Notes: generated by a model not told the origin, from the sequence alone. A DNA stretch of 64,000 nt from Clostridia bacterium (GCA_017545535.1 JAFWMS010000002.1:31116-95115), one strand, 5' to 3'; positions 24,709 through 64,000 are shown, counted from the stretch's first letter. Numbers and translations are program-made.

Positions 24709-24948
24709 GCGCCACCCGATGGGTGGCGCTTTCCTTTGGTCTCCCCGGCGGGATCCGAGCCAACGGCCTTCCGCTTAGGAGAACTGCGACTACGCATGGC
24801 TGATAAAGTTAGACGGCATATGGAAAAACCTGAAAAACCCAGTAATTTAGGGCAAAATCGACATTGTATACTATGCTCATTCAAATCACTCTATGATAGC
24901 ATGCTCATGCAAAGTACAGTCAAAATGCAGTCAAAAGTGCAGTCATTT
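24709..24948 (-). repeat. Module copy 1: GC-rich hairpin, tRNA 3'-half relic, conserved spacer, 3 direct repeats T(G/A)CAGTCA
   Basis: Hairpin GCGCCACCC-gat-GGGTGGCGC at 24709-24729. tRNA half at 24737-24781. Shared blocks GCTGATAAAG and AATTTAGGG. Repeats at 24915-24948 with an 11-12-bp period. The module is homologous by eye to 48770-49020. Confidence 0.7.
24737..24781 (-). other. Decayed 3' half of a tRNA-Arg(CCU)-like gene (anticodon loop to CCA), no 5' half
   Basis: The minus strand reads CTCCTAA GCGGA AGGCC GTTGG CTCGGAT CCCGC CGGGGAG A CCA. The layout is canonical but the T-arm is mutated relative to copy 2. Confidence 0.6.
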
Positions 24949-24949
24949 A

Positions 24950-25294
24950 ATGGAGACGGTTGTCAGCCTTTCCAAGGGTGAGATATCGAGCAAACCCGTC
25001 CGTGTCGAGTTCTCTCTGGAAGGCCTGGACACCTCCTGTCTGCTGAACGACGCCACCTATCAGCAGATCAAGGATTACGTCCTTGAGCACATAGGACTGC
25101 ATGTCTCAACTCTGTACATCGCCCAGGTGAAGGCGAAGCATGGGATCATCGAGCGGGAGTGCTATAACAAGGCGAAGACGGAGGGAAACCGTGTGCCGAA
25201 ATGTCCGCCGGAGAAGGAGAAGGCCATTGAGGAGGCGCTGAGACATTTTCAGATGATTCCGGAAGATCAAGGTTCTTCCATTCCTGCTCAGTAA
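24950..25294 (+). CDS. Small conserved protein of a type I recall from Firmicutes mobile elements (function unknown)
   Basis: ORF 24893..25294. The conserved-looking core is STLYIAQVKAKHGIIERECYNKAKTEGNRVPKCPPEKEKAIEEALRHFQMI. The start is uncertain because no clear SD precedes ATG 24950. Confidence 0.45.
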   Translation: METVVSLSKGEISSKPVRVEFSLEGLDTSCLLNDATYQQIKDYVLEHIGLHVSTLYIAQVKAKHGIIERECYNKAKTEGNRVPKCPPEKEKAIEEALRHFQMIPEDQGSSIPAQ

Positions 25295-25363
25295 CGGTCA
25301 TCAGCCTTCGTAGACTGTGCTGTCTTATGCGCATATGAAAGAGGGCTGTTAGGAGAACTCAAG

Positions 25364-25600
25364 ATGTACAACTCATTTAACAACATGTGGAATTGGGACT
25401 ATATCCAACAGCAGCAAGCACTTCAGCATCATCAGAATCAGGTTTATCAGATAGCTGATTGCGCCAAGAAACTGAAAGACTTTCTTGAAAGCGCAGAGAA
25501 AATCGATCCTTCTTATGAAAAAGCCGCTTTTGAGGCATGTTGTGCCGTATTGCTTGACCACGCAAACAAGCAACGCAAAGCCAATAACATGTGGCATTGA
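25364..25600 (+). CDS. Hypothetical 78-aa protein
   Basis: A good SD (taggagaactcaag) precedes the ATG and composition is AT-rich. I recognised no motif. Confidence 0.45.
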   Translation: MYNSFNNMWNWDYIQQQQALQHHQNQVYQIADCAKKLKDFLESAEKIDPSYEKAAFEACCAVLLDHANKQRKANNMWH

Positions 25601-25819
25601 GAGCAAGAAAAAAGGGCCTGCTTCTCCACTCACGGAGTAGCAGGCTCTGTGCTTTATGCGCCTGGCTCGTCACAAACAACAATCTCGATTTCAATCACTT
25701 CGTGTTTGCTTTCTTTTTGCGCTTTGCGCTTTAGCTAGGCCGATCTTTTACTTGCGTTCGGATGGCTTTTCGTGCTATACTTTATTGAATACTTACAGGC
25801 GGAAAGAGGGTGTGCAGCG

Positions 25820-37416: not shown

Positions 37417-39025
<1,609 letters not shown>

Positions 39026-41992: not shown

Positions 41993-42231
41993 TGCAACCG
42001 CCTCCTTGACAGATGAGTCACTGTGTTTATTGTACCACTTTCGTCCTATTATAAAAAGGATCGGGCTGTTCGTCAAGAGGAAAAACCGAGTTCGGGGAAC
42101 AATTTTTCGTTCTGTTTGATTGTTTTATCCCGATCCGAAGGGAGAAAATGCCTGAATCTTATACCACTTTCAGCAGGAACGACAGTTTTGATGGTGCAAT
42201 TCCGAGCAAGTAGACGAAAAATATTCAAGCT

Positions 42232-42252
42232 ATTGACAATTTTGGACCAAAA
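42232..42252 (+). promoter_or_regulatory. -35-like TTGACA followed by a 15-bp perfect palindrome ATTTTGGACCAAAAT
   Basis: TTGACA at 42232-42237 and the palindrome at 42238-42252. It lies in the divergent intergenic region between the frlD-like operon (-) and the amidohydrolase operon (+). Confidence 0.45.
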
Positions 42253-42414
42253 TGATAGGCTTAACACAGATATCCGGAAACGCTGTGCGCAGGCGCTCCG
42301 GAAGCTCATTTTCTATTCTCTCTTCTTGTGATGCAAAGCCGGAAGCCGCGCTGCTTATTTAGAAAACGGTGCGGCTTTTGCACTTTTTCACGACAAACAT
42401 CAAAGGAGGACGTC

Positions 42415-48418: not shown

Positions 48419-48711
48419 CATGGAAGAAACAGCACCTTCGTTTTGGAGGACAACCACTGGCTATGCCATTGGGAAAAAGTGCTTTAGCAATGGACAAAAA
48501 GAAAGCTCCCCATTTGAGTAGTTGAATAGTATGCACTCCTGTCGAACCATACATTACATTCTTAGGAGCACATGAAGCATGCGTTAAAAAAGTCAGATAT
48601 TTAGGGACAAATGTTTATTATGAAAAATGAGTGTGTGCCTTTGATGCCGTATAATCATTGCCTCAAAAATACAATCGTTACAGCTGAAATAATGGGTACT
48701 CTTTCAAAAAA

Positions 48712-49020
48712 TGCAGTCAAAAGTGCAGTCAAAACTCTTTGTAGCCCTGTTTTTGTGAAACAGGAAACAGAAAAAAGTCCCTAATTTAGGGACTTTTTTG
48801 GCCTCCCCGGCGGGATTCGAACCCACGGCCTTCCGCTTAGGAGTACTGTATTCGAAGGTAGCTGATAAAGCCAGACAGCGTCTAGGTTTTTTCAAAAAAA
48901 CCACTGAATTAGGTAAAAATAACGTTTGTTCACCATGAGAATTCTGCGAACTCTGCATCAGTTTGCTCACGCATTGTGCAGTCAAAATGCAGTCAAGTGC
49001 AGTCAAAAGTGCAGTCAAAT
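48712..49020 (-). repeat. Module copy 2 (attP-like): 2 direct repeats, AT-rich hairpin, intact-looking tRNA-Arg(CCU) 3' half, conserved spacer, 4 direct repeats
   Basis: TGCAGTCAAAAG/TGCAGTCAAAAC at 48712-48735. Hairpin AAAAAGTCCCTA/TAGGGACTTTTT at ~48770-48798. tRNA half at 48798-48842. TGCAGTCAA(A)n x4 at 48977-49020, all in the same orientation. Confidence 0.7.
48798..48842 (-). other. 3' half of a tRNA-Arg(CCU)-like gene (anticodon loop to CCA), no 5' half
   Basis: The minus strand reads CTCCTAA GCGGA AGGCC GTGGG TTCGAAT CCCGC CGGGGAG G CCA. This gives loop, anticodon-stem 3' strand, variable loop, T-arm, acceptor 3' strand, discriminator and CCA. The upstream sequence cannot form the acceptor, D or anticodon 5' strands. 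Confidence 0.65.
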
Positions 49021-49101
49021 TCAAACCCTCACATATCCTTTCACAGAGCGACTTCCAAGTATGTTTTACTGTTTGTTTTTTCTTCTAGAAGATTAACTGT
49101 A

Positions 49102-49130
49102 TGGACTGTTGCGCCTGTTCCTGATATACT
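49102..49130 (+). promoter_or_regulatory. Promoter of the 1235-aa gene
   Basis: TGGACT at 49102-49107, a 17-nt spacer, then extended -10 TGaTATACT at 49122-49130. SD aaaggagaa precedes ATG 49180. Confidence 0.5.
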
Positions 49131-49179
49131 ATGTTCATCATCCTTCATCTTTGACTATTAGACTGACAAAGGAGAAACT

Positions 49180-52100
49180 ATGTCAAAACCATTCCCCGAT
49201 ATAACATGGCCAGTCTTTGAAGTATGCAATGCGAATAAGACAAAAGCCTTTGAAGATATGACACGAAAGCTTTTTAATTCTTATTTGGCGGGAAATCAAA
49301 CGTTAGTTTCAGATGGGATTAATCCGGGAATTGAGGTATTGCCGGTTTTGGAACCTGAAGCAAAAGATGATGCGCAAAGAAGATGGATTAGTTTTCAATC
49401 TAAGTACTTTGAAAAAAACACGAATTATAAGGACATTCTGGATTCTGCAAAACAGATAGTTAAGCATTATAAAGGTAAACTTGATTTAGTGTATTTGTTT
49501 TGTAATAATTCCCTTAAGATCTCATGTGATGGATACAAATCAGTTAAAAATCTGCTTGCAGAGGCGGGAATAGAACTACACCCAATAACCAACGAAATGA
49601 TTCTTGATCTTGTTTCCAAGTATCCTGAAATATATAATTATTATTTTCGGCCAAGAGATATCCCCGATTGTTCTCATGATAATCAATCTAGTTTCACGAT
49701 TGATCAAATAGTGTATTCGCTGAAAAACAGCCTAGATGCTGGGAAAATGCCTCCGCAAGATCCTGCTCTTTTAGTTGGTCTTATTCAAGAGAAGCTTGAT
49801 GTTTGCCGAGGTTTTGTTCTTAATATGGAACTGGATCAATTAAAACAGGAATTAGAAAAACTATTTTCTCATGATTTATGCGGAGTTGAGGGAAGTGACA
49901 CCTTACTGTTTTATCAGAACATTCTGAATATACATGAAAGAAAACCCATTCAAAATACGAACACTGATTTGATGCATAATGCAGAAATTGAATGGTTGAA
50001 AGCATTTTATGAAAATACATATGCTATTTCATTTGAGGAGTTCAATAAATACTCGGATGAAATTAGAATTCTCGTAATAGACCAATTGTTTGTCACAAAG
50101 CATTGGAACACGATAATATCTCTTCATGATCAATCGCTTACTCTGGGGAGTGCATGGGAACAGATGGAGCTTTACTATGGCCTCTCACTCTTCAATCTGC
50201 AGCGTTATGAAGAAGCAAGTGCCGTATTACATGGTTTGTTTGAAAAAACTAAGTGTCCAGCGCATGAAATGTATTCTAAGTTTGCGGATATTCAAGTTAT
50301 AAACAGTTTGTTCAGAACAGGAATGAATGCAAATGCCGATATGCTTGCCGAACTGGTCTCTTCTTTAGATGCCTATAAATGCATTAAGCAATATCAAGCA
50401 TCTGATCTTTTGATAGCCTTGCTGACCTTGGAGTCGTATTGTTATCTTGGGTTATCAAAAAAAGAGTATTTGGAAAAGGCCATTTCAACATATGACTCTT
50501 TTTCTGAGAGTGTACGCCTTAATGATATCGTTCGATTCTACTATGCATTATCCGTTGAACTTAATGGGAACATAGATAAAGCGCTAGAACTATATGAAAC
50601 GATGGAATGGAAAGATGACGAAACCATTGCGTATAGATACCTGTTCTGCCTAATCATGATCGGGCAAACCGAAACAGCCTATCAGAAATTCTATCTATTA
50701 CATGATGTTGCAAAAACAGAAAGGATATATGCACTTTCTTTGCTTGCTCTTCATAAAACAGACGTACAGATGGCTCGAAGTCTAGCAAAGAAGTGGCTTG
50801 AAGGGCATTCCAGCGATTTTTTGAGTATTGTTTCATTCATCGTGTATGTGGAAGATCGCGAGATTATTTCTTCGTTGATAATGCCACAATTACATGAGCT
50901 TATGACAACAGAAAGAATATCTTGTTTACCTTTTCGTCAACGTATTGAACTGATTATTTGGTTAGCTCAAAACATTGAAATTGAATTGATGGAACAAGTA
51001 CTTAAAACGATTGATGATGTTAATAACCTGAATGAATCGACAATAGTAGGAATATACCGGTCTTTAGCAGCAGCATGTGAAAAACCGAATGTTTTTATCA
51101 ACCCGATTCTTGAACCAACTACTATAGCCAAGTCAATTGAAACAATTACTGACAGATTCCTTAATGCAGGGATAAACAGAGAATTGTTTTTGCGAATCAA
51201 AATAGCGTGTGTCAATGCCAGACAAAGTTATATTAGCGCATTACAGTATTCAAAAGAATTGTTTGAACTTACTCAAGACGAAACAACCGCTAAAAACATA
51301 ATTAGTATTCTGGTATTACGTAAAGATAGTAATGAAACTGATTATCACCCATATATTGACATTTTGAAGGATTCTGAAGAACCTGACCAATGCATTACTG
51401 TTGCAGCAGGTTTATTGATGATAGGAAAGGAACAAGAAGCTGATTTATACGCATATAAAGCTATTTACTATTTAAACGGAAAAGATGACTTCAGTATCTA
51501 CAATAGTTTCTTTCAACTTGATAGTTTCAAAATGAGGTGGTTACAGGAGGATGAAGTCGTGCCCATTCGTTCTTCAAAGGGAAATGTGATTGTTACCCTC
51601 GAAGCATCTTCTTCAACTACCCAAGAAGCAAAAATGGACGTATGCCTGGATTCAGAAAAAGAATTCTCGCAAGACGGAAATAGAAGCATGGGTGTCTGCC
51701 ATATAAACTCAACAGATACAGATTATCTCAAAATCAAAAGTGCTGGACTGAATCAAGTTATAAAGCTAAAAAACGGAACATTTCAAGTAAAAAGAATCAT
51801 CCCCAGGAAAAAATTCTGCAGGGCTTTTGTGTTTAGCAAATTGCAGGCAAACCAAGAGTATTTTTCTGGGGTGATTATTTCCACGTTGCCTGAAAACCCA
51901 AAGGAAGCAATAGAACAGCTCCGAAAGCTTAGCGACAGGTCTGAACAAGCAAATACGAACCTGAAGATGTATCATTTTGAAGATAGTACCAATCTTGGCC
52001 TGCCAATTGAAGTTGTTGGATTTATGGATTATGATCGCTATCTTGGTACATCAAAGTATTTATTATTTCAACCTGATGAAGCTTTTTATTCTGGTGAAGT

Positions 52101-52887
52101 TGTTTACAGGTTTGATAGTGGAGAAGGTTTGAAGTATGTCATTACACTTTCAACTCTTGTGCTACTTAGCATATTAAATAGACTTGATGTTCTGGATGTA
52201 ATTAAGCAGAACATTATTATTCCAAAGAGTTATCTTCCTTTTTTTCATGATTTATTTGAAAAGGCACTTAATGATCAAGCAATGGACGCCAAAACGCTCT
52301 ATTTCGATGGAGATAAAACCATATTGTCTGACCAAGACCCCACTATCCCCGAAATATGGGAACGGATAGTACGTTTCTGCGACGATTGCGAAACTTATGA
52401 AATAATAGATCAAGAACGAATAGATTATTACATTCAAGAGTCATTAAGAGGTGAAGACTTATTATCAGCATTCAAATTGAACGTTATTCAATTAGATGCT
52501 TTGATACTATCAAGCAGAGAGTCTGCGATGTATCTATGTGATGATCTCTTTTTTCGTAAATTAGCCAACTGGGCTGGCATCAAACACTGTAATACAGCTT
52601 CGCTCCTATTGCTACATGACGATCAAGAATATATCGATTCATTTGTGAAGGAACTATCAAAAACGAACTATATATATGTACCTTTGGCAGGGGTTTCATT
52701 CAGCACAATCCAAGCGATGCAGGATGATATGTTAACTGGTAAAAGAAAAAAAGAACTGAACGCAGGGTGGATCCATCAATACTATGCTGCAAGAGAAGCT
52801 GTTCTAAACGAATTAATTAAGGATGAATTGTTCCATATGCAAATAGTGGATAATACCGATGAGTCAGTGACGGATGATAATAGTTAA
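49180..52887 (+). CDS. Orphan 1235-aa protein: Mrr-like PD-(D/E)xK nuclease head, long TPR-like helical region, GreA/B-C-like beta domain, PIN-like C-terminal domain (candidate defence/conflict effector)
   Basis: aa 23-145: FEDMTRKLF..SDGINPGIEV..WISFQSKYF..LVYLFCNN..IELHPITNEMILDLV follows the Mrr_cat pattern. aa ~300-780 are helix-repeat rich. aa 791-875 have GreA C-terminal-like spacing. aa 985-1130 (KYVITLSTLVLL .. QLDALILSSRESAMYLCDDLFFRKLA) are PIN-like. No GxxxxGK[ST] is present. Confidence 0.55.
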   Translation: MSKPFPDITWPVFEVCNANKTKAFEDMTRKLFNSYLAGNQTLVSDGINPGIEVLPVLEPEAKDDAQRRWISFQSKYFEKNTNYKDILDSAKQIVKHYKGKLDLVYLFCNNSLKISCDGYKSVKNLLAEAGIELHPITNEMILDLVSKYPEIYNYYFRPRDIPDCSHDNQSSFTIDQIVYSLKNSLDAGKMPPQDPALLVGLIQEKLDVCRGFVLNMELDQLKQELEKLFSHDLCGVEGSDTLLFYQNILNIHERKPIQNTNTDLMHNAEIEWLKAFYENTYAISFEEFNKYSDEIRILVIDQLFVTKHWNTIISLHDQSLTLGSAWEQMELYYGLSLFNLQRYEEASAVLHGLFEKTKCPAHEMYSKFADIQVINSLFRTGMNANADMLAELVSSLDAYKCIKQYQASDLLIALLTLESYCYLGLSKKEYLEKAISTYDSFSESVRLNDIVRFYYALSVELNGNIDKALELYETMEWKDDETIAYRYLFCLIMIGQTETAYQKFYLLHDVAKTERIYALSLLALHKTDVQMARSLAKKWLEGHSSDFLSIVSFIVYVEDREIISSLIMPQLHELMTTERISCLPFRQRIELIIWLAQNIEIELMEQVLKTIDDVNNLNESTIVGIYRSLAAACEKPNVFINPILEPTTIAKSIETITDRFLNAGINRELFLRIKIACVNARQSYISALQYSKELFELTQDETTAKNIISILVLRKDSNETDYHPYIDILKDSEEPDQCITVAAGLLMIGKEQEADLYAYKAIYYLNGKDDFSIYNSFFQLDSFKMRWLQEDEVVPIRSSKGNVIVTLEASSSTTQEAKMDVCLDSEKEFSQDGNRSMGVCHINSTDTDYLKIKSAGLNQVIKLKNGTFQVKRIIPRKKFCRAFVFSKLQANQEYFSGVIISTLPENPKEAIEQLRKLSDRSEQANTNLKMYHFEDSTNLGLPIEVVGFMDYDRYLGTSKYLLFQPDEAFYSGEVVYRFDSGEGLKYVITLSTLVLLSILNRLDVLDVIKQNIIIPKSYLPFFHDLFEKALNDQAMDAKTLYFDGDKTILSDQDPTIPEIWERIVRFCDDCETYEIIDQERIDYYIQESLRGEDLLSAFKLNVIQLDALILSSRESAMYLCDDLFFRKLANWAGIKHCNTASLLLLHDDQEYIDSFVKELSKTNYIYVPLAGVSFSTIQAMQDDMLTGKRKKELNAGWIHQYYAAREAVLNELIKDELFHMQIVDNTDESVTDDNS

Positions 52888-52927
52888 AATATCACTCTAT
52901 CATTTACATATCGATCTTTAGACAATA

Positions 52928-53573
52928 CTATGCAAGTATTGGCACAACGCTCGTCTGTAAATCCGGTATTATACTAGAGATATCCGTATCTGGAGATAGC
53001 CATTCCTCTGCCCTACTGTAAGGCACAATAACCGGCATGCGCGGATGAATCTCCCGGATGTTGGATGCAGCATCCTGTGACAGTATAGAGAAGCAGGGCA
53101 GTCGCTGCTGATCGGATGTCTTAATGTACAGACCTGCCAAGTACAAAGGTTCTCGATTCTCAGCATAGAAAGCGTATTTATCTTTTTTGTTCTTGTCTGT
53201 CTTATGCCACTCAAAGTAGCAGGAGGCCGGAATCAGGCAGCGCCGGTCGTTGATGCTGGTGCAGAATAGCGCCTTTTGCGGTTTCGTTTTTCAGCTCCAG
53301 AGTTGCGGTTTCACTGCGGGTGTTAAATACCAGCATGCCTTTGGTTGGATGATTGAAACCCCATTGCATGGGGAACGCTCCAATCTTCCGATGAGCCGCG
53401 GATGGGGCAATGACCGGGGCTATACAGATTCCTTGATCCAAGAACGCGATGTTCATGAAGAGAAATTCCGCAAACCAAGCAGGAAATTCCACTCTGATTG
53501 GGAGCTTGCCAATTTCTGCCATGGTGGCGATTTGGACGAAGATTGATGACTTAATAATTGTATTTATTTCCAC
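52928..53573 (-). pseudogene. Decayed SOS-response-associated peptidase (SRAP/YedK-like) gene
   Basis: The upstream frame gives APVIAP..FPMQWGFN..VFNTRSETA. The downstream frame gives RRCLIPASCYFEW..LYLAGLY..FSILSQDAASNIREIHPRMPVIV. The frameshift is near the A5 run at ~53,290. The N-terminus reads KSSIF where the catalytic MCGRF is expected, and there is no Met start. Confidence 0.7.
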
Positions 53574-53602
53574 CGCCCCGCAGGGGATGACTGCGGGGCG
53601 GT
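53572..53602. other. Boundary hairpin H1
   Basis: ACCGCCCCGCAG-gggatga-CTGCGGGGCGGT, a perfect 12-bp stem, lies exactly at the AT-rich to GC-rich transition. Confidence 0.8.
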
Positions 53603-53653
53603 GCTATGTCAGCCGGAATATAGCCGCCGCGCCATTGATTTTTCCCGGGGAGG

Positions 53654-53662
53654 TGATATACT
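53654..53662 (+). promoter_or_regulatory. Extended -10 (TGaTATACT) upstream of the MATE gene
   Basis: Sequence match only. Confidence 0.4.
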
Positions 53663-55145: not shown

Positions 55146-55787
55146 TTAGTCCAGCAATCCCTTGTCGATGATCTGGAAGTTGGCCCGGTGGATATAGAGG
55201 GCCTTGCCGTCGATCATGAGCTTGGTGAACTTGGGCAGATCCTCCTGGACCTCCCAATAGACCTTGTTCCCGGAGAAAGCGTAGATGGGCGCGCCCATCT
55301 GGGACTTGATGACCACCACCATGGGCTTGCCGAAGGCGTTTTTGATGCTGTTCACCTTGCCGGCGATCAGCACCGAATCCATGATCCCCGACGAGGAGCT
55401 GTCGATGTCGTCCAGATAGAATTCATACTCCGGGGAAAGCCGCGTGTCGTAGAAGATGCAGGTGTCGCCGCAGGAAATGAGCTGCTTCCCGTCGATAGTT
55501 ATGGTGATGACGGAGCTCAGCGTCTTGGTGGTGAGCCAGCCGTTGGAATCCGAGGAATAGGACGTCTCCTCCACCACGTTGTTGTCGATGTCGATCTTCT
55601 CCCCGTGGGTCCTGAGAGTGCGGATGCCCATGTTGTCGAAGATGTCAATGTTGTATTCGTTTCCGAAGATGCTGCCGTGCAGGTCGTGGATGCCGCTTTT
55701 GAGCATGGAGCAGCCGGCTTGTCCCACCGCCAGCAGCAGAATCAGGACCAGTGTCGCGATCCTCCGTTTCATCTTTCCGCTTTTCAT
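55146..55787 (-). CDS. Lipoprotein of unknown function
   Basis: Lipobox LLLAVGQAGC. The 213-aa protein is beta-rich. Confidence 0.6.
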   Translation of the reverse strand: MKSGKMKRRIATLVLILLLAVGQAGCSMLKSGIHDLHGSIFGNEYNIDIFDNMGIRTLRTHGEKIDIDNNVVEETSYSSDSNGWLTTKTLSSVITITIDGKQLISCGDTCIFYDTRLSPEYEFYLDDIDSSSSGIMDSVLIAGKVNSIKNAFGKPMVVVIKSQMGAPIYAFSGNKVYWEVQEDLPKFTKLMIDGKALYIHRANFQIIDKGLLD

Positions 55788-55951: not shown

Positions 55952-56203
55952 ATGAACATAGATACCAACACCATTGCCACCATGACGGAGGCGAATCAAA
56001 ACTTTTCCCGCGTGGCGAAGAAGGCGGATCAGTATGGGGAGGCCATCATATTCAAGAACAACCGGCCCAAGTATCGGCTGATCGATCTGGAACAGGCGGG
56101 ATCGTCCCCGGATCGGGAGCTTACAGACGATGAAAAGATCGACATCGTGGCCCGGCAGATCCTGAAGGAATACAAACCGGCCTTTTTGGAGCTTGCCAAA
56201 TGA
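55952..56203 (+). CDS. phd: Phd/YefM-type antitoxin
   Basis: 83 aa. TMTEANQNFSRVAKKADQYGEAIIFKNNRPKYRLIDLE matches the Phd/YefM N-domain. It overlaps doc by 4 nt. Confidence 0.8.
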   Translation: MNIDTNTIATMTEANQNFSRVAKKADQYGEAIIFKNNRPKYRLIDLEQAGSSPDRELTDDEKIDIVARQILKEYKPAFLELAK

Positions 56204-56580
56204 TTAAGTTTTCCAGAGAAAAGGTGCTGTTGCTGCACCAGCTGATCACGGAGGAAACGGGCGGCGACGCCGGAGTGCGGGATTTCGGCCTGCTGGATTC
56301 CGCCCTGGAGAATATTTACCAGACCTTTGATGGGCAGGAGCTCTATCCCACCAAGCAGGAGAAGGGGGCGCGCCTGGGGTACACCCTGATCTCCAACCAT
56401 GCCTTTGTGGACGGGAACAAGCGCATCGGCATGTATGTGATGCTGAGCTTTCTTCAGGTCAACGGCATCCATATCCACCCCTCCAACGAGGAAGTGGCCC
56501 GGGTGGGCCTCGCCGTGGCGTCCGGAACCATGAGCTGCGAGGAGCTCCTCGCCTGGATCGTGGAGAATTCGGCGGAGTAG
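56200..56580 (+). CDS. doc: Doc (death-on-curing) Fic-fold toxin
   Basis: 126 aa with the Fic/Doc motif HAFVDGNKRIG. Confidence 0.85.
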   Translation: MIKFSREKVLLLHQLITEETGGDAGVRDFGLLDSALENIYQTFDGQELYPTKQEKGARLGYTLISNHAFVDGNKRIGMYVMLSFLQVNGIHIHPSNEEVARVGLAVASGTMSCEELLAWIVENSAE

Positions 56581-56683: not shown

Positions 56684-56702
56684 CCACCCAAAACCATGAT
56701 AA

Positions 56703-56729
56703 GCCCCGCAGGGAAATCCCCTGCGGGGC
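56703..56729. other. Boundary hairpin H2
   Basis: GCCCCGCAGGG-aaatc-CCCTGCGGGGC lies directly downstream (minus sense) of the recombinase remnant. Confidence 0.8.
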
Positions 56730-56737
56730 GTTAGCGT

Positions 56738-56820
56738 TTAGGGTTCCGTATCGGGCGGGTTGTCGTCCGCCTCGGCGGGTTGGGCAGTCTTTGGGGCGGG
56801 CATTTTAGGCTTGTGTTCTT
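56738..56820 (-). pseudogene. 3'-terminal remnant (~26 codons plus stop) of a second serine-recombinase gene
   Basis: The minus frame reads EHKPKMPAPKTAQPAEADDNPPDTEP*. The intact recombinase ends EKRKPKMAAAKAAQPPEPNDDPPAPEL*. The DNA is alignable to 59710-59795, and homology is lost at ~56,822. Confidence 0.75.
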
Positions 56821-56907
56821 ACCAACAGGCGATATATCAAGGTTTCCCCATATTCTTTTCCCTGAAATAGAAAATTACCAATTATCCTATACATAACGCT
56901 TTTAAAC

Positions 56908-56916
56908 TGCTATAAT
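56908..56916 (+). promoter_or_regulatory. Extended -10 (TGcTATAAT) upstream of the DUF262 gene
   Basis: Sequence match. SD taggagaag precedes ATG 56962. Confidence 0.45.
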
Positions 56917-56961
56917 TTAGCAAAGAGAGACATGTAGTTTTTCAGAATATAGGAGAAGAAA

Positions 56962-59655
56962 ATGAACGCACAAAAAGCACTTATCACGAACATTTTTAAT
57001 GGTGCAACATTGATCGAAGTTCCATTTTTTCAAAGGCCTTACGTTTGGAATGATGAACTGTGGGCAAAGTTTATTGAAGATATGGAGTTTATCGTCTTAA
57101 CCCATAAAACTCATTTCCTGGGAGCTATTATTCTTAAGGACGCTGGTCAACCAAAACCCGGAGACAAAGTTGCACAGCACCACACTATTGTTGATGGACA
57201 ACAACGGCTTACTACTTTTCTCCTCTTTCTGAAAGCGCTATGCCTTAAGCAGAATCAGATGACCTTTTTTGATTTTCAGTTTAGGATTATGGGGCAAGAG
57301 ATTGCATTGCGTCATGGGAAGAACGATAGGGATGCGTTTGAAAAGGCTATTTCTACGACAACAACTGCAAAAATCGAGAATCCAGAGCCTGGGTCAAGAA
57401 TAATTGAAGCTTTCAACTACTTTTTAGATCATGTGGATGCTTCGAAGTTGAACATTATGGAAATCATTATGAATGCACAGTTCGTCAGGATCGACTTGGA
57501 TATAAATGAAGACGAACAGCAGATTTTTGATACGATAAACTCCTTAGGGGTTAGGCTCACTACCGCCGAGCTGTTGAAGAATTACTTCTATTCTTGGCAG
57601 GATGTGGCGCTGTATGAAAAGTCTTGGGTGGAAGTGTTCGAAAAGGACAACGATACGCGCGCTTATTGGAACCAAGAATTTGAAATGGGCCGCATGACAA
57701 GAACACTGATCGATGTGTTCTTTGATTCTTATTTTCAGTTGTTTGTACAAGATTCCAAGTACAAAGTGTCCACCGAGGACAAGATAGCATACTCCCGGTT
57801 GGAGCATCTGGCTAAGTCCTACCAAGACTTTATCAAGGTTTACTGCAACGGTGACAAGCAGGTAATGCTCGGACCGATGCAACAATACGCGAACAAATTC
57901 CGGGAGATATTCGATCCTGCTTGTGTCGATCGTCAGATGCCTAAGCATCCCGGCATTGAGCGAATCAATGTCATCATTTTCGGGTTGAAGAACGCCACGC
58001 TGATTCCGTACATCCTCTATCTGGCCTGTAACGTGGAAGATTCGGCAGAACACAACAAGATGCTGGAAATCCTCGAAGCTTACATCATGCGGCGGATGGT
58101 CATACGGGCAACGACTAAAAACTACAACAATCTGTTCGTTTCGCTGATACTTAACAAGATAAACACGTCGGAAGCTCTGCTTTCAGCGTTAAAGAAGATG
58201 GGCGATGGGACCACCTATGTGCCGTCCGATGAAGAGCTGTTGGATGGGTTCAGGACGAGTAAGCTGAGCAACCTTCAGGCAAAGGGTGTTATCTACTATA
58301 TCGAATCCGGCATACGGTCTCCCAAGAGCGCCGTCGCCCTTTTAGGCTTTAGGCAATACAGTTTGGAGCACCTTATGCCAAGAAAATGGAGGAATCATTG
58401 GGCGCCCTGCGCCTCTGAGGATTTGGCTCGAGTCAGAGATCAAAAGCTTCAAACGCTCGGCAATTTCGCCATCATTACGCAGTCATTGAACACGTCAATC
58501 AGCGATGCAGATTGGCAGACAAAGAAGGCCGGAAAGAAAGACAATCCGGGTTTGGATCAATGTGCCGCTGGATTGATAACTATGGAAAATGTACTCTCTG
58601 AAAACACTTGGAGTGAGAGCAACATCAGTTCCAGAGCAGACTGGTTATGGGAAAACGCAAAACAGCTTTGGAAAAGTATCATGCCGGCAATTCATGATGG
58701 AACTATTTCTTCCGGGAGTTTGTTTCAATCTACTAACACTATAGAATTGCGAAAACGTTATTGGGCCTACGCACTGCCAGTTATAAAGAAGGAAAACTAT
58801 TATAGGGGAACTTTTTCAAACTGCAATCCACGAGGAACAGGATATATTAGTGGATACTTTGGACTAAGTGGTTTTAGGGTTGATTGCGTAGCGAATTATG
58901 ATGTAGCACGAATAGATTTTTATCTTGGGAATAGTGATGTTAAAAAGAATAAAGCTGCTTTCGATACTTTATTCTCTCATAAGGACGATATCGAAAAAGC
59001 ACTTGGTGTACAATTATCCTGGGATCGTGCTAATGGGAATGTTGCATCTTGGATGATCCACCACCTATATGGTGTGAGCATAGGAAACGAGCAGGATTGG
59101 CCGAAGATAGCTGAATTCCACGCTAAATGGAGCCGGAAGATTTGTGACGTGATGTTGCCTTATCTTCTTTCTCCAGAAATGAAAAAGCCTTTGGAAATCG
59201 GAGCATGGACCAGAGAATGGGCTAATCAGAAAGAAGGCATAGCGTTTGACGTTGGAAATTGCAGTCTCCATTATACTCGTTTTACCACTGCTGCTATGAC
59301 TGAGATTTTGCCTAATCTAAAGGATGTTCCGAGCGCTTGGAACACGGATTCGCATTATTTCTATGAAATAAACACTATGTCTTCCGGAAAAATACTGATG
59401 CAGATGGCGATAAATTCTAAGAATATTACAAGCGACTATCGTGCCATCTGTGATGCGATCCAGAAGGTCTATCCATCAAAGCATAATCCCTCCAAAGCTA
59501 ATACGGATGAATGGGAGTATCGCGTACCTTTCATGACAAAACCGCTTAATGCTACGAAAATGGAGAAAGAAGATGTATTCAAGCAACTTGACCAATGGCT
59601 AAATGAAGTGAAATCCTTTGAAAAAGACTTAAAGCAAAAACTTGAAAATCAATAA
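56962..59655 (+). CDS. GmrSD-like DUF262 + DUF1524 (His-Me finger) protein with C-terminal DUF4268-like extension (type IV restriction-like)
   Basis: DUF262: EVPFFQRPYVWNDELW..FLGAIIL..VDGQQRLTTF. DUF1524: SLEHLMPRKW..LGNFAIITQSLNTSISDADWQTKK. The tail RKRYWAYALPVIK..FDTLFSHKDDIEKALGVQLSWDR is DUF4268-like, followed by ~170 aa I could not assign. Confidence 0.75.
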   Translation: MNAQKALITNIFNGATLIEVPFFQRPYVWNDELWAKFIEDMEFIVLTHKTHFLGAIILKDAGQPKPGDKVAQHHTIVDGQQRLTTFLLFLKALCLKQNQMTFFDFQFRIMGQEIALRHGKNDRDAFEKAISTTTTAKIENPEPGSRIIEAFNYFLDHVDASKLNIMEIIMNAQFVRIDLDINEDEQQIFDTINSLGVRLTTAELLKNYFYSWQDVALYEKSWVEVFEKDNDTRAYWNQEFEMGRMTRTLIDVFFDSYFQLFVQDSKYKVSTEDKIAYSRLEHLAKSYQDFIKVYCNGDKQVMLGPMQQYANKFREIFDPACVDRQMPKHPGIERINVIIFGLKNATLIPYILYLACNVEDSAEHNKMLEILEAYIMRRMVIRATTKNYNNLFVSLILNKINTSEALLSALKKMGDGTTYVPSDEELLDGFRTSKLSNLQAKGVIYYIESGIRSPKSAVALLGFRQYSLEHLMPRKWRNHWAPCASEDLARVRDQKLQTLGNFAIITQSLNTSISDADWQTKKAGKKDNPGLDQCAAGLITMENVLSENTWSESNISSRADWLWENAKQLWKSIMPAIHDGTISSGSLFQSTNTIELRKRYWAYALPVIKKENYYRGTFSNCNPRGTGYISGYFGLSGFRVDCVANYDVARIDFYLGNSDVKKNKAAFDTLFSHKDDIEKALGVQLSWDRANGNVASWMIHHLYGVSIGNEQDWPKIAEFHAKWSRKICDVMLPYLLSPEMKKPLEIGAWTREWANQKEGIAFDVGNCSLHYTRFTTAAMTEILPNLKDVPSAWNTDSHYFYEINTMSSGKILMQMAINSKNITSDYRAICDAIQKVYPSKHNPSKANTDEWEYRVPFMTKPLNATKMEKEDVFKQLDQWLNEVKSFEKDLKQKLENQ

Positions 59656-59677
59656 ATGATATTGAAATAGAAAACAC

Positions 59678-59701
59678 GCCCCGCAGGTCTCCCTGCGGGG
59701 C
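59678..59701. other. Boundary hairpin H3 (also the likely terminator of the recombinase gene)
   Basis: GCCCCGCAGG-tctc-CCTGCGGGGC lies 9 nt beyond the recombinase stop. Confidence 0.8.
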
Positions 59702-59709
59702 GCTTGTGT

Positions 59710-61545
59710 TTATAGCTCCGGGGCGGGCGGGTCGTCGTTCGGCTCGGGGGGTTGGGCGGCCTTGGCGGCGGCCATTTTGGGCTTGCGCTTCTCGTAGTAA
59801 TAGCGGCGGTCGTACTCCTGCCGGCGGCGGCGCTTCTCGGCGGCCAGCTCCTCCTCGGTGAGGGGGACGGGCGGCTCCTCCTCGGGCAGATCCACCTTGC
59901 CGATGTGCTTGAGCATGATCTCCACGGGCTGGATCTTCATGCCGCCCACCCGCCGGGGGCCGTGGACCAGGATCCTGTCCACGAATTCCAGGATCATTTC
60001 GTTGGTCAGCACCGAGAAATCCGTGTACCTTTTGGCCAGGAACAGGAACTGCTCCGCCCGGTCCGTGTCCTTGTCGAAGGCGGCGAGCTGCCCTTGGTCG
60101 TCCGCCAGGGCCTTCTGTAGGTCCGCCTGCTCCGCTTCGTACCGGGCGGCGATCTGCTCATAACGGGCGAGGGGCAGGCGGTTCAGGGCGTAGTCCTCGT
60201 AGAGCTTCACGGAAAGCCGGTCCAGCTCGTCGATCCGCTTCTGGGCCTTGCGGATGCGCTGGCGGACGGCCTTGGCGTCGGCGGTCTGGCGCAGGGCGGA
60301 GGCCTCCCGGACCCGGTGCAAAAACTCCGTCCGGTTCCGGATGGCGAAGGTGGCGGCGGTGCGAATAGCGTCCAACGTCAGGGAGCGAAGGGCCTGGGTG
60401 GTGATGTAGTGGGAGAAGCAGGTCTTGGTTTCCCGCCGGGAGGACATGGTGTAGGTCCTGCACTGGTAGGAGTCCGCGGGCAGCAGCCCTGTCACGGGGT
60501 CGGGGGTGAAGGTGTGCCATTGGTTCTTGGCCATGCCCCGGTGGTTGTACATTTTGCTGCCGCAGTCCGCGCAGAACACCAGCCCCGTGAACACGTTGGG
60601 CTCGCCGGTGGTGTCCGTGCGGCGGACGGTCTTGCGGATCTGCTGCACGGCGTCGAAGGTGCTTTGATCTATGATGGGCTCGTGAGTATTCTCGATGATC
60701 TGCCACTGGCTGGGGTCGCAGTAGACCTTGGGGCTCTTATAGGTCTCCTTGTCGGTCCGATGGTTCACGGTGTGGCCCAGGTACTCCGGCCGGGAGAGCA
60801 TCTTCGCCACCGTCCGGGGGGCCCAGTCGTAGGGGCGATCCAGGTCCGTGGCGTAGAGTTCCAGGCCGTGGGTGTGCATATAGTAGGAGGGGCGCTCTAT
60901 CTTCCGCTCCCTAAGCTTGTTAGCGATGACGGCGGGGCCGTAGCCCTTCAGGGCAAGGGCGAAGACCTCCCGCACCACGGCGGCGGATTCCTCGTCGATC
61001 AGCAGGTGGTGCTTCTGCTCCGAGTCCTTTTTGTACCCGTAGAGCACCTTGTTGGAAAAGGGGATGTTCGCCCGGCTCCGGGCCAGGTAGGACTGCTTCT
61101 GCTTGCGGCTGGCGTCCCTCAAATACCACTCGTTCATGATGTTGAGGAAGGGGGCGAACTCGCCGCTCTGCCGATCCGCGCTGTCCACGCCGTTGGTGAT
61201 GGCGATGAACCGGACCCCGTGCTGGGGAAAGAACACCTCCGTGTAGAAGCCGGTCTGCAGATAGTCCCGGCCCACCCGGCTCATGTCCTTCACCAGCACC
61301 GCCGCCACCTTCCCACTTTCGATGTCCGCCACCAGCCGCTTCCAATCCGGGCGCTCAAAGTTGCCGCCGGTGTAGCCGTCGTCGGTGTAGTGGGCGCAGT
61401 TCGAGAAACCATGCTGCGCGGCATAGTCCTCCAACATGCGCTTTTGCATCACGATGGAATTGCTGTCCCCCAGCTGCTCGTCGTCCCGGGACAGGCGCTC
61501 GTATAGGGCTGTAATCTGTTCTTGTTCTGTCTGCCTGACGCTCAT
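59710..61545 (-). CDS. Large serine recombinase (resolvase catalytic domain + recombinase/zinc-ribbon + coiled-coil tail)
   Basis: 611 aa with the catalytic region ALYERLSRDDEQLGDSNSI..VLVKDMSRVGRDYLQ. Cys pairs CADCGSKM..CRTY lie in the zinc-ribbon region. Confidence 0.9.
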   Translation of the reverse strand: MSVRQTEQEQITALYERLSRDDEQLGDSNSIVMQKRMLEDYAAQHGFSNCAHYTDDGYTGGNFERPDWKRLVADIESGKVAAVLVKDMSRVGRDYLQTGFYTEVFFPQHGVRFIAITNGVDSADRQSGEFAPFLNIMNEWYLRDASRKQKQSYLARSRANIPFSNKVLYGYKKDSEQKHHLLIDEESAAVVREVFALALKGYGPAVIANKLRERKIERPSYYMHTHGLELYATDLDRPYDWAPRTVAKMLSRPEYLGHTVNHRTDKETYKSPKVYCDPSQWQIIENTHEPIIDQSTFDAVQQIRKTVRRTDTTGEPNVFTGLVFCADCGSKMYNHRGMAKNQWHTFTPDPVTGLLPADSYQCRTYTMSSRRETKTCFSHYITTQALRSLTLDAIRTAATFAIRNRTEFLHRVREASALRQTADAKAVRQRIRKAQKRIDELDRLSVKLYEDYALNRLPLARYEQIAARYEAEQADLQKALADDQGQLAAFDKDTDRAEQFLFLAKRYTDFSVLTNEMILEFVDRILVHGPRRVGGMKIQPVEIMLKHIGKVDLPEEEPPVPLTEEELAAEKRRRRQEYDRRYYYEKRKPKMAAAKAAQPPEPNDDPPAPEL

Positions 61546-61796
61546 GTGTTCATCCTTTCAGGCTGCCGACAGGACGGTTGCGGTACGTCCAGTATACCAC
61601 CTTCCCCGGCCAATGCAACTGGTTGATTTTGGATCATGTGGATGATCCGATCCTCCATATTCGATCCGTCGCTGTCCACGACGGTAACTTTAACTTGATA
61701 GATGGTGTTTTTGATCCTTCGGGTCATGTTCATGCGGGCTGGGCGGTCCTCCTTCCTCAAGGCCGTGATGGGTGCAATCGTGTCGGTTGATCTCAA
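61542..61796 (-). CDS. TnpW-like small transposon protein
   Basis: 84 aa with 4-nt overlap to the recombinase start. TRRIKNTIYQVKVTVVDSDGSNMEDRIIHMI resembles the recalled TnpW-family core (..IGNTTY.V.VHFS..S.ETxxDKI). Confidence 0.5.
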   Translation of the reverse strand: MRSTDTIAPITALRKEDRPARMNMTRRIKNTIYQVKVTVVDSDGSNMEDRIIHMIQNQPVALAGEGGILDVPQPSCRQPERMNT

Positions 61797-61887
61797 TGAT
61801 GCAGATCATTTGGGTGTCTCCTTTGATTACTATTTTGTCCAAATTGGTCCCCTTCCCACGCATGTGGTGCGATGCAAGTTTTGTCGT

Positions 61888-63270
61888 TTACCGTTCCCGG
61901 TCATAATGCGAGAACTCTTCGATGAGCTCCCTATCCTCGGTCAGGAAGGGGCGGAGGTTCGATTGGATGCGAGTGCTGTCCGCCTTGATCTGCTCACATA
62001 GACGCACTTCGGTTTTCAGACTGCGGAGCGCCCGATTTACCTCCACGAGATCAGCATACAGCCTTTCCCGCTCAAGTTTGAGGATGTCGATGGGGGTTTT
62101 TGAAAGAATCTGCTGTGCTTTTTGTAATTTGTCCTGCTCCTCCGGGGAGAGAGGACAGCCGGCTTCGTCCCGGCCCTCGAACATGGCCACGGTCTGCAGG
62201 GCGTCGTAGAGGGGCCGCTGCCGCTTCTTTTGCCCGTTCAGGATGATCCGGTGCTTGGTCTGCCAGTCGATCTGTCGGGTGAGATCGGCCATGCGGGCCT
62301 CCAGCTGCTCCAGGGTGTCGATCTTGTTATTGGTCAGGTAGGCCGCCGCCTTCTTCAGCTGCTCGAATCGCTTCAGCTCCTTGGGCGGCACCACATGCTG
62401 CATCTGCACCCCGTCGTTCACCAACCCCAATATGTATGTCCAGGCCAGGACACAGGCCCGGAAACCCGTGACCTTTCCACGGGGAAAGCGGACCCGCTGC
62501 TGCCGGGGCATGATCACCTCGAAGGTGGGGTCCGTCATGGCCTTGTCGATGTAGGCGATGAGGTCGTCCTCCGTCATGGCTTTGCCCTTCACCCGGGCCC
62601 GATGGCCATGCTCGTCTCCATAGGGGACGAAGGTAGGGTAGCGGCTCCGGTGCTGGATGGTGTAGCCCCGATCCTCCATGAGAGCGTAGAACTGCCCCAC
62701 GTCCATGGCCAGGGACAGGCATTCCGCCACGTCCCGGTCCACCAGCTGCCGCTGGGTCCGGATGCCCAGCTTCTGCATCCGCCATTCCACATAGGTCAGA
62801 GCGCGTTTGTTTGGCTCGTCGATAACCGACAGGCCGTACTCCCGGCAGAGCCTGTCCGACAGGCCCCGGATTTCCTTGAAGTAGGAATTGGGTGAGGAGT
62901 GGTACTTGTGCCCGTCCCGGTCCGAGACGGAATTGAAAATGATGTGGTTGTGGACATGAGCTTTGTCCACATGGGTGCCCACGATCACCTCGAACCCGTC
63001 CAGATACCGTTCCGCGAACCGGTTCCCGATCTCATGAGCCAGCTCCGGGGTGATCTCCCCGGGCCGAAAGCTCTGGATCAGGTGATAGGCCTGGACGCCC
63101 TCCGTCCGCCCGAACCGACGCTTGGTGTCCATCCAGGTCCGGGCCGCCGTTTCCGGCTGGCAGCCAATGGATGAAACGAACACCTGTTCACCCGTCTTCT
63201 TGGGGTTCACCACATACCGAATCAGCTTGTCGAGGCGGGCATCCTTGGCCAGTATCTTCGTCACCGCCAT
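61888..63270 (-). CDS. Relaxase/mobilisation nuclease (MobA/VirD2 family)
   Basis: ATG 63270 (MAVTKILAK..) lies inside ORF 61888..63501. AYHLIQSF and the His triad HVDKAHVHNHIIFNSVS are present. Confidence 0.85.
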   Translation of the reverse strand: MAVTKILAKDARLDKLIRYVVNPKKTGEQVFVSSIGCQPETAARTWMDTKRRFGRTEGVQAYHLIQSFRPGEITPELAHEIGNRFAERYLDGFEVIVGTHVDKAHVHNHIIFNSVSDRDGHKYHSSPNSYFKEIRGLSDRLCREYGLSVIDEPNKRALTYVEWRMQKLGIRTQRQLVDRDVAECLSLAMDVGQFYALMEDRGYTIQHRSRYPTFVPYGDEHGHRARVKGKAMTEDDLIAYIDKAMTDPTFEVIMPRQQRVRFPRGKVTGFRACVLAWTYILGLVNDGVQMQHVVPPKELKRFEQLKKAAAYLTNNKIDTLEQLEARMADLTRQIDWQTKHRIILNGQKKRQRPLYDALQTVAMFEGRDEAGCPLSPEEQDKLQKAQQILSKTPIDILKLERERLYADLVEVNRALRSLKTEVRLCEQIKADSTRIQSNLRPFLTEDRELIEEFSHYDRER

Positions 63271-63575
63271 CGTTCCACCTCCTCCCGCAGCTCCCGGTGG
63301 AGGGCTTTCACCCGGTCCCACTCGGCCCGGTCGATGAGGCCGATGGCGTTGGCCCGGTGGGCCAGCTGGTTCAGATTGTTGCCGATCCGGTCCACGGCCC
63401 GCAGCACCTCCCGGAGCTCCGGGGTGGGCTTGGCTTTCAGCTCCGTGTCCGTGATCAGCTTTCGCAGCAGCCGGGTTGAGCCCAGGCCTGTGCGGCGGCA
63501 CAGCTCCATCAATTTCTTATGCTCGGCTTCATTGAGCCGGGTCCCAACGTGAATGTTCCTTGTTCTAAATTCCAT
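63261..63575 (-). CDS. mobC: MobC-type relaxosome accessory protein
   Basis: ATG 63575 (MEFRTRNIHV..) lies inside ORF 63261..63743. The motif is RIGNNLNQLAHRAN. It overlaps the relaxase start by 10 nt. Confidence 0.8.
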   Translation of the reverse strand: MEFRTRNIHVGTRLNEAEHKKLMELCRRTGLGSTRLLRKLITDTELKAKPTPELREVLRAVDRIGNNLNQLAHRANAIGLIDRAEWDRVKALHRELREEVERWR

Positions 63576-63660
63576 GATCCCTTTCCCCGCGCCTCGGCGC
63601 GGCATATGGGTCCGGGTGCCCCGGCAAGCGCATTTGGAACGCCAAATGCTATGCTTGCAA

Positions 63661-63697
63661 GGACATCCCAGGATACTGCGTATCCCTCGGGATGTCC
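63661..63697. promoter_or_regulatory. Candidate oriT inverted repeat
   Basis: GGACATCCC..GGGATGTCC outer arms enclose AGGATAC-tgc-GTATCCc, upstream of mobC. A second hairpin GCATTTGG-aacg-CCAAATGC lies at ~63630-63651. Confidence 0.35.
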
Positions 63698-64000
63698 GTC
63701 TCCTGTTAGGCGCAGCCCCTCCGGAAACCAACTTTGCGGCCATAGCCGCTGTACGATACCCGCGGGCTACAGCCCTGCGCCCGTCCCCACTCGGTCCCTA
63801 CGGACTTACTCTCAACTTTTGTGTCCAGCCAACGTGTGTACTGGAAGAATGACGAATCCTCATCTTCTGAACCTCCTTTCCTTCCTTTTTGTCCCTTTCC
63901 CGCCGCAGCGGTGCGATACGATCAGCCCTTGGCCTCACCTCCTTTCCGTAACTTCGCGCCAAGTTGGCACGAAGTTAGCTCACGGCTACTGATTTGAACT

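Follow-up and report, generated by a model that had tools for sequence, protein, structure and literature searches.

The DNA analyzed here is a 64,000-nt stretch from a Clostridia bacterium (the window; coordinates count from its first base), and the subject of this analysis is an AT-rich islet that lies in it just past the stop codon of an FGGY kinase gene, at a strain-variable position between a conserved sugar-utilization block and a MATE gene (Table 1). From left to right the islet holds two tandem copies of an attachment (att)-like module, one of them decayed and the other containing the orphan 3′ half of a tRNA-Arg(CCT) gene, followed by an intact gene for a 1235-amino-acid (aa) protein, a dead gene for a SRAP protein and a hairpin, H1. 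An initial annotation, made from the sequence alone, had seen in these contents the remnant of a small integrative element without a recombinase, whose only maintained cargo was the 1235-aa gene; the one large intact gene of that proposal was confirmed as an open reading frame (ORF).

Table 1. Features of the islet and its borders, in window coordinates.
Feature	Position	Strand	Basis
AT-rich intergenic tail 3′ of the FGGY kinase stop; native	48,419-48,534		Alignment; BLAST end points at 48,534
Unit A, decayed copy of the att module	48,535-48,745	-	Pattern search, alignment, repeats
Intrinsic-terminator-like hairpin directly 3′ of the tRNA half	48,771-48,799	-	Terminator scan
Orphan tRNA-Arg(CCT) 3′ half: anticodon loop through T-arm, acceptor 3′ strand, CCA	48,799-48,843	-	Sequence reading
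Element arm (unit B), ~130 nt, conserved boxes and four GCAGTCAA direct repeats (48,978-49,019)	48,844-49,025	+	Alignments, repeat list
Promoter-like site TGGACT-17-TATACT with extended -10 TG, 50 nt upstream of the 1235-aa gene	49,102-49,130	+	Consensus scan
Intact 1235-aa gene (TGP family)	49,180-52,887	+	ORF; PF20698 in homologues; Pfam; AF2; Foldseek
SRAP (YedK-type) pseudogene, GC 0.48	52,928-53,573	-	Pfam, three-frame translation
Hairpin H1, perfect 12-13-bp stem, without T-tail	53,571-53,603		Coincides with right GC change point
Last window-specific bases	53,604-53,627		L056 homology restarts at ~53,628 (alignment, BLAST)

Composition was followed in 500-nt windows across the 64 kb, together with maximum-likelihood change points and the tetranucleotide correlation with the bulk genome. 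The G+C content (GC) is 0.364 inside the islet as against 0.600 ± 0.059 over the rest of the 64-kb window (z = -4.0), and the tetranucleotide correlation stands at about -0.4 in the islet compared with +0.6 to +0.9 in the flanks. GC at third codon positions (GC3) separates the genes in the same way, with 0.32 for the 1235-aa gene versus 0.80 for the FGGY kinase, 0.93 for the MATE gene and 0.90 for the recombinase. The abrupt drop that the initial annotation had described after the kinase stop was borne out: GC is 0.61-0.66 in the kinase gene and reaches 0.34-0.42 no more than ~200 nt past its stop, the left change point lies at 48,332 (0.66 to 0.40), and the shift in sliding-window GC and k-mer usage is sharp, not gradual. 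GC then remains at 0.35-0.39 up to about 52,900. The rise on the right, which had been placed exactly at H1, takes two steps, the first at 52,941 (0.35 to 0.48) and the second at 53,570 (0.48 to 0.63); the second is indeed within 2 nt of H1, but the intermediate level of 0.48 corresponds to the SRAP pseudogene. The islet is horizontally acquired foreign DNA. Its proposed limits of 48,419 and 53,602 hold approximately, since alignments with relatives place the window-specific DNA at about 48,535 to 53,627. The segment 48,419-48,534 is native intergenic DNA and not specific to the islet, because it is common to four relatives (L006, L047, L053 and L054; loci and contigs used for comparison carry L numbers).

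The tRNA half, read on the minus strand from 48,843 to 48,799, runs CTCCTAA-GCGGA-AGGCC-GTGGG-TTCGAAT-CCCGC-CGGGGAG-G-CCA, and its core or crossover region, TTCCGCTTAGGAG, occupies 48,831-48,843. An ARAGORN scan of the window turns up no complete tRNA, and Rfam returns only a T-arm match and no known RNA family for the module. The boxes of the adjoining arm run GCTGATAAAG...CCAGTAATTTAGGG... into the GCAGTCAA repeats. Unit A comprises a pseudo tRNA half with the core TCGAACC-N12-CTTAGGAG at 48,542-48,568, an arm box at 48,586-48,608 and two GCAGTCAA repeats at 48,709-48,733. The TCGAACC-N12-CTTAGGAG pattern thus occurs at 48,542 and 48,817, 275 nt apart, and was reproduced in 0/100 shuffles, so that the att-like module, as first noted, is real and non-random. 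The GCAGTCAA repeats stand in comparable places relative to the two cores (four at +142 nt, two at +148 nt) and are conserved in five loci; they are candidate arm-type integrase binding sites. Two ORFs in this stretch, 48,704-49,024 on the minus strand and 48,976-49,161 on the plus strand, were judged spurious because they cross the tRNA half and the repeats. To judge from this organization, the left end of the islet is an att junction, probably of a tyrosine-integrase-type element, made up of tandem modules of which one is decayed. The earlier description of an attP-like site therefore stands insofar as this is a tRNA-derived att junction, but two tandem modules, one of them decayed, do not make a simple attP; they are as compatible with serial accretion or a hybrid junction as with attP.

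The same module recurs elsewhere in combinations that bear on how it may have moved. A 4.3-kb contig from another sample (L063) matches the window at 99.8% identity over a stretch that begins at the anticodon-loop core, takes in the arm and the entire 1235-aa gene and ends at 52,995. Six positions of its tRNA-Arg half are different, among them compensatory changes in the T-stem (GCGCG/CGCGC versus GTGGG/CCCGC), and its terminator and GC-rich coding flank are unrelated to those of the window, the identity starting in the anticodon loop. Such a switch of flank is what site-specific recombination at the core TTCCGCTTAGGAG would be expected to produce. A homologous module in the window itself, at 24,710-24,946, consists of a terminator, a tRNA-Arg half whose T-loop has decayed, an arm ~72% identical to the main one, and repeats, and lies 100 nt from the breakpoint of contig L056, described below; with two small ORFs that have no Pfam match, it makes up a second element remnant at 24,631-25,738, between the YpeB core gene and the metabolic block. 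Scanning of metagenomes with a core-plus-arm pattern returned four further loci (L102, L103, L104 and L105). Two of these, L102 and L103, join an arm of the 24.7-kb type to a tRNA half of the GCGCG type, and L105 has three sites, at one of which a tRNA half is joined to a third arm type, while at a second the arm stands at a pseudo-core (CTTCAGCGTCGGAG) without a tRNA half and beside a flank identical to that of L063. From the combinations in the window, L063, L102, L103 and L105 it follows that both tRNA-half types occur with both arm types. The neighbors of the modules at these other places are varied (RlaP, radical-SAM/MarR, an ABC1 kinase, two small ORFs). L102 has, 2.5 kb away from its arm, a truncated piece of a Phage_integrase (PF00589, 27.8 bits); beside that piece, at ~440-500 on the minus strand, are four direct repeats of TTGGCATAC, which may be arm sites of a different integrase.

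The fourth locus, L104 (1,005 nt), is a collinear deletion derivative that consists of window segments 48,790-49,394, 50,274-50,565 and 53,177-53,235, with its junctions at short direct repeats, so that the arm is followed by a 292-nt internal piece of the 1235-aa gene and then by the SRAP relic. The cargo that had been called maintained is accordingly intact in the window but largely deleted in L104, which suggests that the 1235-aa gene is being lost in some populations, with misassembly of the contig as a possible alternative.

Comparison of the site across relatives was based on contigs of metagenome-assembled genomes (MAGs) and on metagenome contigs. The FGGY kinase assigns the source of the window to an uncultured rumen Oscillospiraceae. 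Over 36.7-48.4 kb the window is matched at 97-99% identity by nine MAG contigs, all of which diverge just past the kinase stop, at 48,400 (L008, L009), 48,419 (L007), 48,432 (L012), 48,477 (L005) or about 48,534 (L006, L047, L053, L054). BLAST gives no match to the window in the 6-10 kb downstream of their divergence points, and at least six alternative contents follow the kinase gene in these relatives, mixing ordinary with accessory genes, among them Fic, Prok-JAB, a VWA/AAA_5 pair, esterases, PGM and GGDEF-EAL. The arrangement of the window is present in three same-strain contigs (L055, L057 and L058; 99.9% identical), and apart from the same strain the islet is absent from all related genomes examined. 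The 286-kb contig L056, from a 94-95% identical lineage, shares with the window the block of MATE, DUF5052, Phd/Doc, GmrSD, serine recombinase, relaxase and MobC genes. Its homology to the window begins 25 nt to the right of H1, which it lacks, and just upstream of a promoter-like site of the MATE gene (53,635-53,662, by promoter scan). The other side of L056 matches window 23,044-24,630 (YpeB), and in between it has 3.4 kb (HTH/ImmA/DUF4417) in place of the 29 kb of the window (the 24,631-53,627 interval). The initial annotation had asked whether the islet is present or absent as a unit; it is absent from relatives, but these show other continuations and no empty site, and in L056 the entire 24.6-53.6 kb interval is missing. 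On these alignments the islet is best described as one tile in a mosaic, multi-element, hypervariable hotspot.

The 1235-aa protein has ~28 full-length homologue clusters, at 33-63% identity, among 5.8 billion proteins, and these come from gut and rumen Firmicutes. A precomputed PF20698 ("PIN-TPR-GreABC") annotation is found on 24 of the 28 clusters, and the same family covers aa 990-1130 of the window protein (profile positions 4-137 of 138); PADLOC and NCBIfam have no model for the protein. In the AlphaFold2 (AF2) model of residues 1-185 (mean local confidence score, pLDDT, 86) the N-terminal 160 aa adopt a PD-(D/E)xK fold, for which Foldseek (residues 1-160) gives the Avs4 nuclease 8dgf as best match (E 9e-7, TM 0.65), followed by MspJI, EcoT38I, Card1 and Can2. 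Residues E25, E52, Q73 and K75 are invariant both in the family and in STAND NTPases (P0029-P0034) that are headed by the same N-terminal domain at 42-48% identity. The model of residues 800-1235 (pLDDT 77) contains a PIN fold (VapC, probability 1.0, TMt about 0.63), and a β-rich domain precedes it at aa ~803-876. Matches of the TPR type are all below threshold (ANAPC3 8e-5, TPR_14 1.5e-3 and others; MamA TPR at E 0.59 in a PDB profile search). From these models and by analogy with described systems, the cargo is a predicted antiphage protein of REase-TPR-GreA/B-C-PIN (TGP) architecture, in which REase denotes a restriction-endonuclease-type head and the TPR and GreA/B-C parts are putative.

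TGP proteins were described by Kaur, Iyer, Burroughs and Aravind (eLife 2021; PMC8195603) as mostly standalone proteins with a constant TPR/GreA/B-C/PIN portion and a variable N-terminal effector of 13 types, REase among them, along with EAD10, HNH, TIR and SIR2; in the model proposed there, the protein docks on phage-hijacked RNA polymerase, the PIN domain cleaves transcripts and the N-terminal effector serves as a back-up. Agp of the E. coli Bab/Agp system has been shown experimentally to be antiphage, and mutations in its GreA/B-C domain abolish defence (bioRxiv 10.1101/2024.11.07.622273). The window protein resembles TGP systems and Agp in being a large standalone protein with putative TPR-like repeats, a PF20698-type PIN domain, a variable N-terminal effector and a mobile or defence location, but it has no amyloid (BASS11) motif and no Bab-like partner gene, and its head is an Avs4-like PD-(D/E)xK nuclease. 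Experimental antiphage support comes only from the distant relative Agp; the window protein is known from sequence and models. With Avs4 (AVAST type 4, 8dgf) it has in common a PD-(D/E)xK-type core and the conserved E...E...QxK residues; identity is only about 20%, and the sensor part would consist of TPR/GreA/B-C/PIN instead of a STAND ATPase. Homologues occur as cargo of an integrative and conjugative element beside PIN_12 and Schlafen-AlbA, in a serine-recombinase integrative and mobilizable element beside SIR2, AAA_21 and HNH, and in a defence island, and six homologue neighborhoods contain no conserved partner gene. For the nearest homologue (P0002 loci), DNA similarity is limited to the gene itself.

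The SRAP gene is dead, as the initial annotation had it. It carries at least two frameshifts, its coding sequence is spread over three frames, the Met-Cys start is lost and the PF02586 match is limited to a 72-aa piece; an intact ORF for a SRAP (YedK/HMCES) peptidase with its N-terminal Cys2 nucleophile is absent from the islet.

We consider it probable, although well short of certain, that the islet is the decayed and truncated left end of a tyrosine-integrase-type element that targets the anticodon loop of tRNA-Arg(CCT) and carries a TGP defence gene. An element of this type would have inserted in the anticodon loop of a tRNA-Arg(CCT) gene and have lost its integrase and other junction, leaving the att junction in its tandem modules, a single intact cargo gene preceded by a promoter-like site, and the dead SRAP gene. 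Because the integrase and the other junction would be gone, the islet would no longer be autonomously mobile. By analogy with the published model, the cargo protein would dock through its GreA/B-C part on phage-hijacked RNA polymerase, its PIN domain would cut transcripts, and the N-terminal Avs4-like DNA nuclease would then be unleashed as an abortive back-up. The proposal of an integrative-element remnant was therefore right in kind, with respect to the foreign DNA, the tRNA-att junction, the lack of an integrase and the dead SRAP gene, but the left border, the attP nature, the empty site and the mosaic context had to be recast, and the size of the element could not be established as small, its right end being lost.

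In islands that tyrosine integrases target to tRNA genes, the 3′ part of the tRNA stands at the junction with the crossover inside the tRNA, as is seen here, and arm-type direct repeats are likewise seen, but the integrase gene and a core at both ends with an intact tRNA are not found here. Tandem accretion is known from tRNA-gene islands and integrase-less cis-mobilizable elements (CIMEs), for example ICESt1/CIME in Streptococcus thermophilus. The likeness of the islet to such islands and CIMEs extends to the duplicated tRNA 3′ segment, the direct repeats in the arm, the tandem junctions, the loss of the integrase and the accessory or defence cargo at the att site, but only one side is recognizable here. 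Because there is no intact tRNA gene and no second att site, we regard the islet as a truncated remnant and not as an att-flanked CIME.

Several observations weigh against this reading. No integrase, second (attL-type) junction or intact tRNA-Arg was found in the window or in the 10 kb to its right, and because these three were not found, site-specific integration at this place is inferred and not demonstrated. The islet ORFs scanned against Pfam include no recombinase, as had been claimed, and the window as a whole has no detectable tyrosine integrase, with no similarity to a Tn916-type integrase anywhere. The 10 kb beyond the right end of the window (L128) contain no tRNA and no integrase, and the expectation that an intact tRNA-Arg gene or an integrase would lie just past that end was ruled out by the Fic and Type I restriction-modification (RM) genes with a TIR gene that lie there instead. 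The same-strain loci hold no intact tRNA, and no core occurs near 52,900-53,630, both core copies being at the left end. The parent element, with an integrase beside the arm, was not found in viral or metagenome collections: scans of viral contigs for the repeats, for core plus arm and for arm boxes gave only unrelated tandem repeats or nothing, a phage database gave only 45-nt tRNA-like matches, and none of the metagenome loci with related modules has an intact integrase. No contig joins the kinase tail directly to the MATE promoter, so that relatives show alternative occupancy and no simple empty site, and the staggered breakpoints after the kinase gene look like illegitimate or homologous recombination, not like one precise site-specific event. 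With respect to the cargo, the PF20698 score of the window protein is 22-25 bits against a Pfam cut-off of 27.8, the first canonical acidic position of the PIN domain appears to be Ser/Thr, and the GreA/B-C assignment is not significant, hhalign pairing the invariant ICLDSE.EF with GreA IVGDDEADF at E 0.13 and a probability of 0.5%. Finally, an unrecombined attP would equally account for repeats lying to the left and right of the tRNA half.

On that last account the junction would be a true attP (P′ arm, tRNA half/core, P arm) of a circular element that had opened at another place and came into this locus through illegitimate or homologous recombination, and L063 would be the normal integrated product in a real tRNA-Arg gene. 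The two sets of GCAGTCAA repeats flanking the tRNA half are 96% identical as 25-mers, a perfectly preserved tRNA half with a terminator of its own is what an attP would have to contain, and the left flank (48,535-48,796) has the AT-rich composition of the element, in contrast to the GC-rich coding flank of L063. The left part, however, opens with a second core, a T-loop box and an arm box at the spacing of the main module, for which a second tandem module is a better explanation than a P′ arm. The L063 flank moreover recurs beside another arm in L105 and need not, for that reason, be a pristine host attB flank. We regard an unrecombined attP as a possible but rather unlikely explanation.

It is also conceivable that no integrative element left a remnant here at all, and that a defence cassette was swapped into the hotspot by homologous or illegitimate recombination, the tRNA-half modules being older, unrelated debris. 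The staggered breakpoints and the at least six alternative contents after the kinase gene would suit such a history, as would a similar hotspot upstream of a GntR gene (with CBASS, SIR2, SAVED and others) and the confinement of DNA similarity with the P0002 loci to the gene. What renders it doubtful is that arm and gene are linked at 99.8% identity in L063, and linked in L104 too, and that the flank of L063 switches exactly at the tRNA anticodon-loop core. Improbable in our estimation is the idea that the modules of tRNA half, arm and GCAGTCAA repeats form, in rumen Oscillospiraceae, a family of small integrase-less cassettes that are captured and shuffled in trans at the anticodon-loop core, also into each other, and that build arrays delivering single defence or accessory genes. 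If this were true, the modules would be a platform for tRNA-att-based gene capture, similar in function to an integron or to the accretion of CIMEs; three of its sites would lie in the window (at 24.7 kb and, twice, at 48.5-48.8 kb), and the 99.8% identity of the REase-TGP gene in another host context would reflect a recent transfer of that gene as a cassette.

A large serine recombinase (Resolvase/Recombinase/Zn_ribbon/DUF4368) is encoded at 59,710-61,545, 6 kb to the right of the islet, and the islet could in principle be distal cargo of a mobilizable element extending from MATE through GmrSD, the recombinase and the relaxase, with H1 as its end hairpin. The 12-mer that H1 shares with two hairpins farther right, H2 and H3 (CCCTGCGGGGCG), and the co-occurrence of the MATE-to-relaxase block in several contigs speak for this assignment. 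We rejected it as highly improbable, because L056 has the block, 94% identical, without the islet, without H1 and with its junction at 53,628; L063 and L104, in turn, hold islet sequence in other contexts, and the sequence to the right of H1 cannot be aligned with the 3′ relic of the recombinase. Least probable of all, and rejected since the module occurs with the unrelated cargo listed above, is a functional RNA gene, for example a decoy or regulator, that works with the PIN-domain protein: the tRNA half begins at the anticodon loop, where VapC-type PIN toxins cut tRNAs, has its own terminator and adjoins a PIN-domain gene, but homologues of the 1235-aa gene occur without the module and one of the window copies is decayed.

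The DNA to the right of the islet carries further mobile and defence genes. An integrative mobilizable element occupies 59,710-64,000 and continues through positions 1-10,000 of L128, with the serine recombinase, a MobA/VirD2 relaxase and NikA/MobC and, past the window, Fic and Type I RM genes among which a TIR (or RES) gene is embedded; the right end of the element lies beyond the sequence covered. A second AT-rich cassette, 56,701-59,702, contains an 897-aa GmrSD_N/GmrSD_C/DUF4268 Type IV restriction-like gene (56,962-59,655; GC 0.43) and is bracketed by a 95-nt direct repeat (56,719-56,813 and 59,691-59,785, 80% identical). Because this repeat consists of the 3′ end of a serine recombinase gene and its terminal hairpin, the relic of a second recombinase gene precedes the GmrSD cassette. 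The 12-mer CCCTGCGGGGCG has three exact occurrences in the 64 kb, in H1 (53,571-53,603), H2 (56,701-56,730) and H3 (59,677-59,702); H2 and H3 sit after recombinase stop codons (that of the serine recombinase and that of the relic), and H1, absent from L056, may likewise derive from an element end, as the third such relic. A Phd/YefM-like antitoxin and a Doc/Fic toxin are encoded at 55,952-56,580, beside a DUF5052 lipoprotein gene (55,146-55,787, minus strand).

A second hotspot in relatives lies just upstream of the GntR gene of the sugar-utilization block (L106-L115, equivalent to ~24.7-25.7 kb of the window), with contents that differ between contigs and include CBASS (DncV-like), SAVED and MqsA, SIR2, Apyc1/KptA, TnpV/Bro-N, or a Tn916-type integrase with Xis and VapE. 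Position 25,739 was considered as a precise boundary common to nine contexts and rejected; it marks a single event in the lineage of the window, because the left flank of the relatives is common to them all. A segment of ~130 nt at 38,781-38,912 loses megablast homology in all relatives inside an otherwise 96-98% identical block and may be a small variable or replaced segment. Inside the conserved metabolic block, GC falls locally to 0.44 at about 42.2 kb (42,000-42,400), and the AT skew is strongly negative (-0.3 to -0.49) at 45.0-46.0 kb. In two relatives, ARAGORN reports a 94-nt 'tRNA-Phe(aaa)' within an AAA_5 ATPase ORF (L053 4,740-4,833 and L054 4,511-4,604), which is probably a false positive.

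The neighbors of the islet in its hotspot are GmrSD, Phd/Doc and the Type I RM system with TIR. Defence islands and integration hotspots such as those of E. coli (Hochhauser et al. 2023) are similar in having a fixed site between conserved genes and mobile and defence content that varies with the strain; the present site differs from them in its host, an uncultured rumen Oscillospiraceae, and in being bounded by a sugar-utilization block. The 24.6-64 kb region is in this respect a useful example of a defence hotspot of a gut anaerobe.

With the islet read as the truncated left end of a tRNA-Arg-targeting element, the element type, the hotspot behavior and the protein architecture are all of kinds already known, and the locus is a fairly ordinary case of a horizontally acquired defence gene that does not overturn current understanding. 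Neither this TGP subfamily nor the tRNA-Arg att family of rumen Oscillospiraceae appears to have been described, on a literature check that was limited for the att family. What the analysis contributes is evidence that points to the anticodon loop of tRNA-Arg(CCT) as the site of recombination, and a record at base-pair resolution of the movement of a rare, uncharacterized TGP subfamily between uncultured rumen Clostridia. The 1235-aa protein is a reasonable candidate in which the sensing of phage-hijacked RNA polymerase could be tested.

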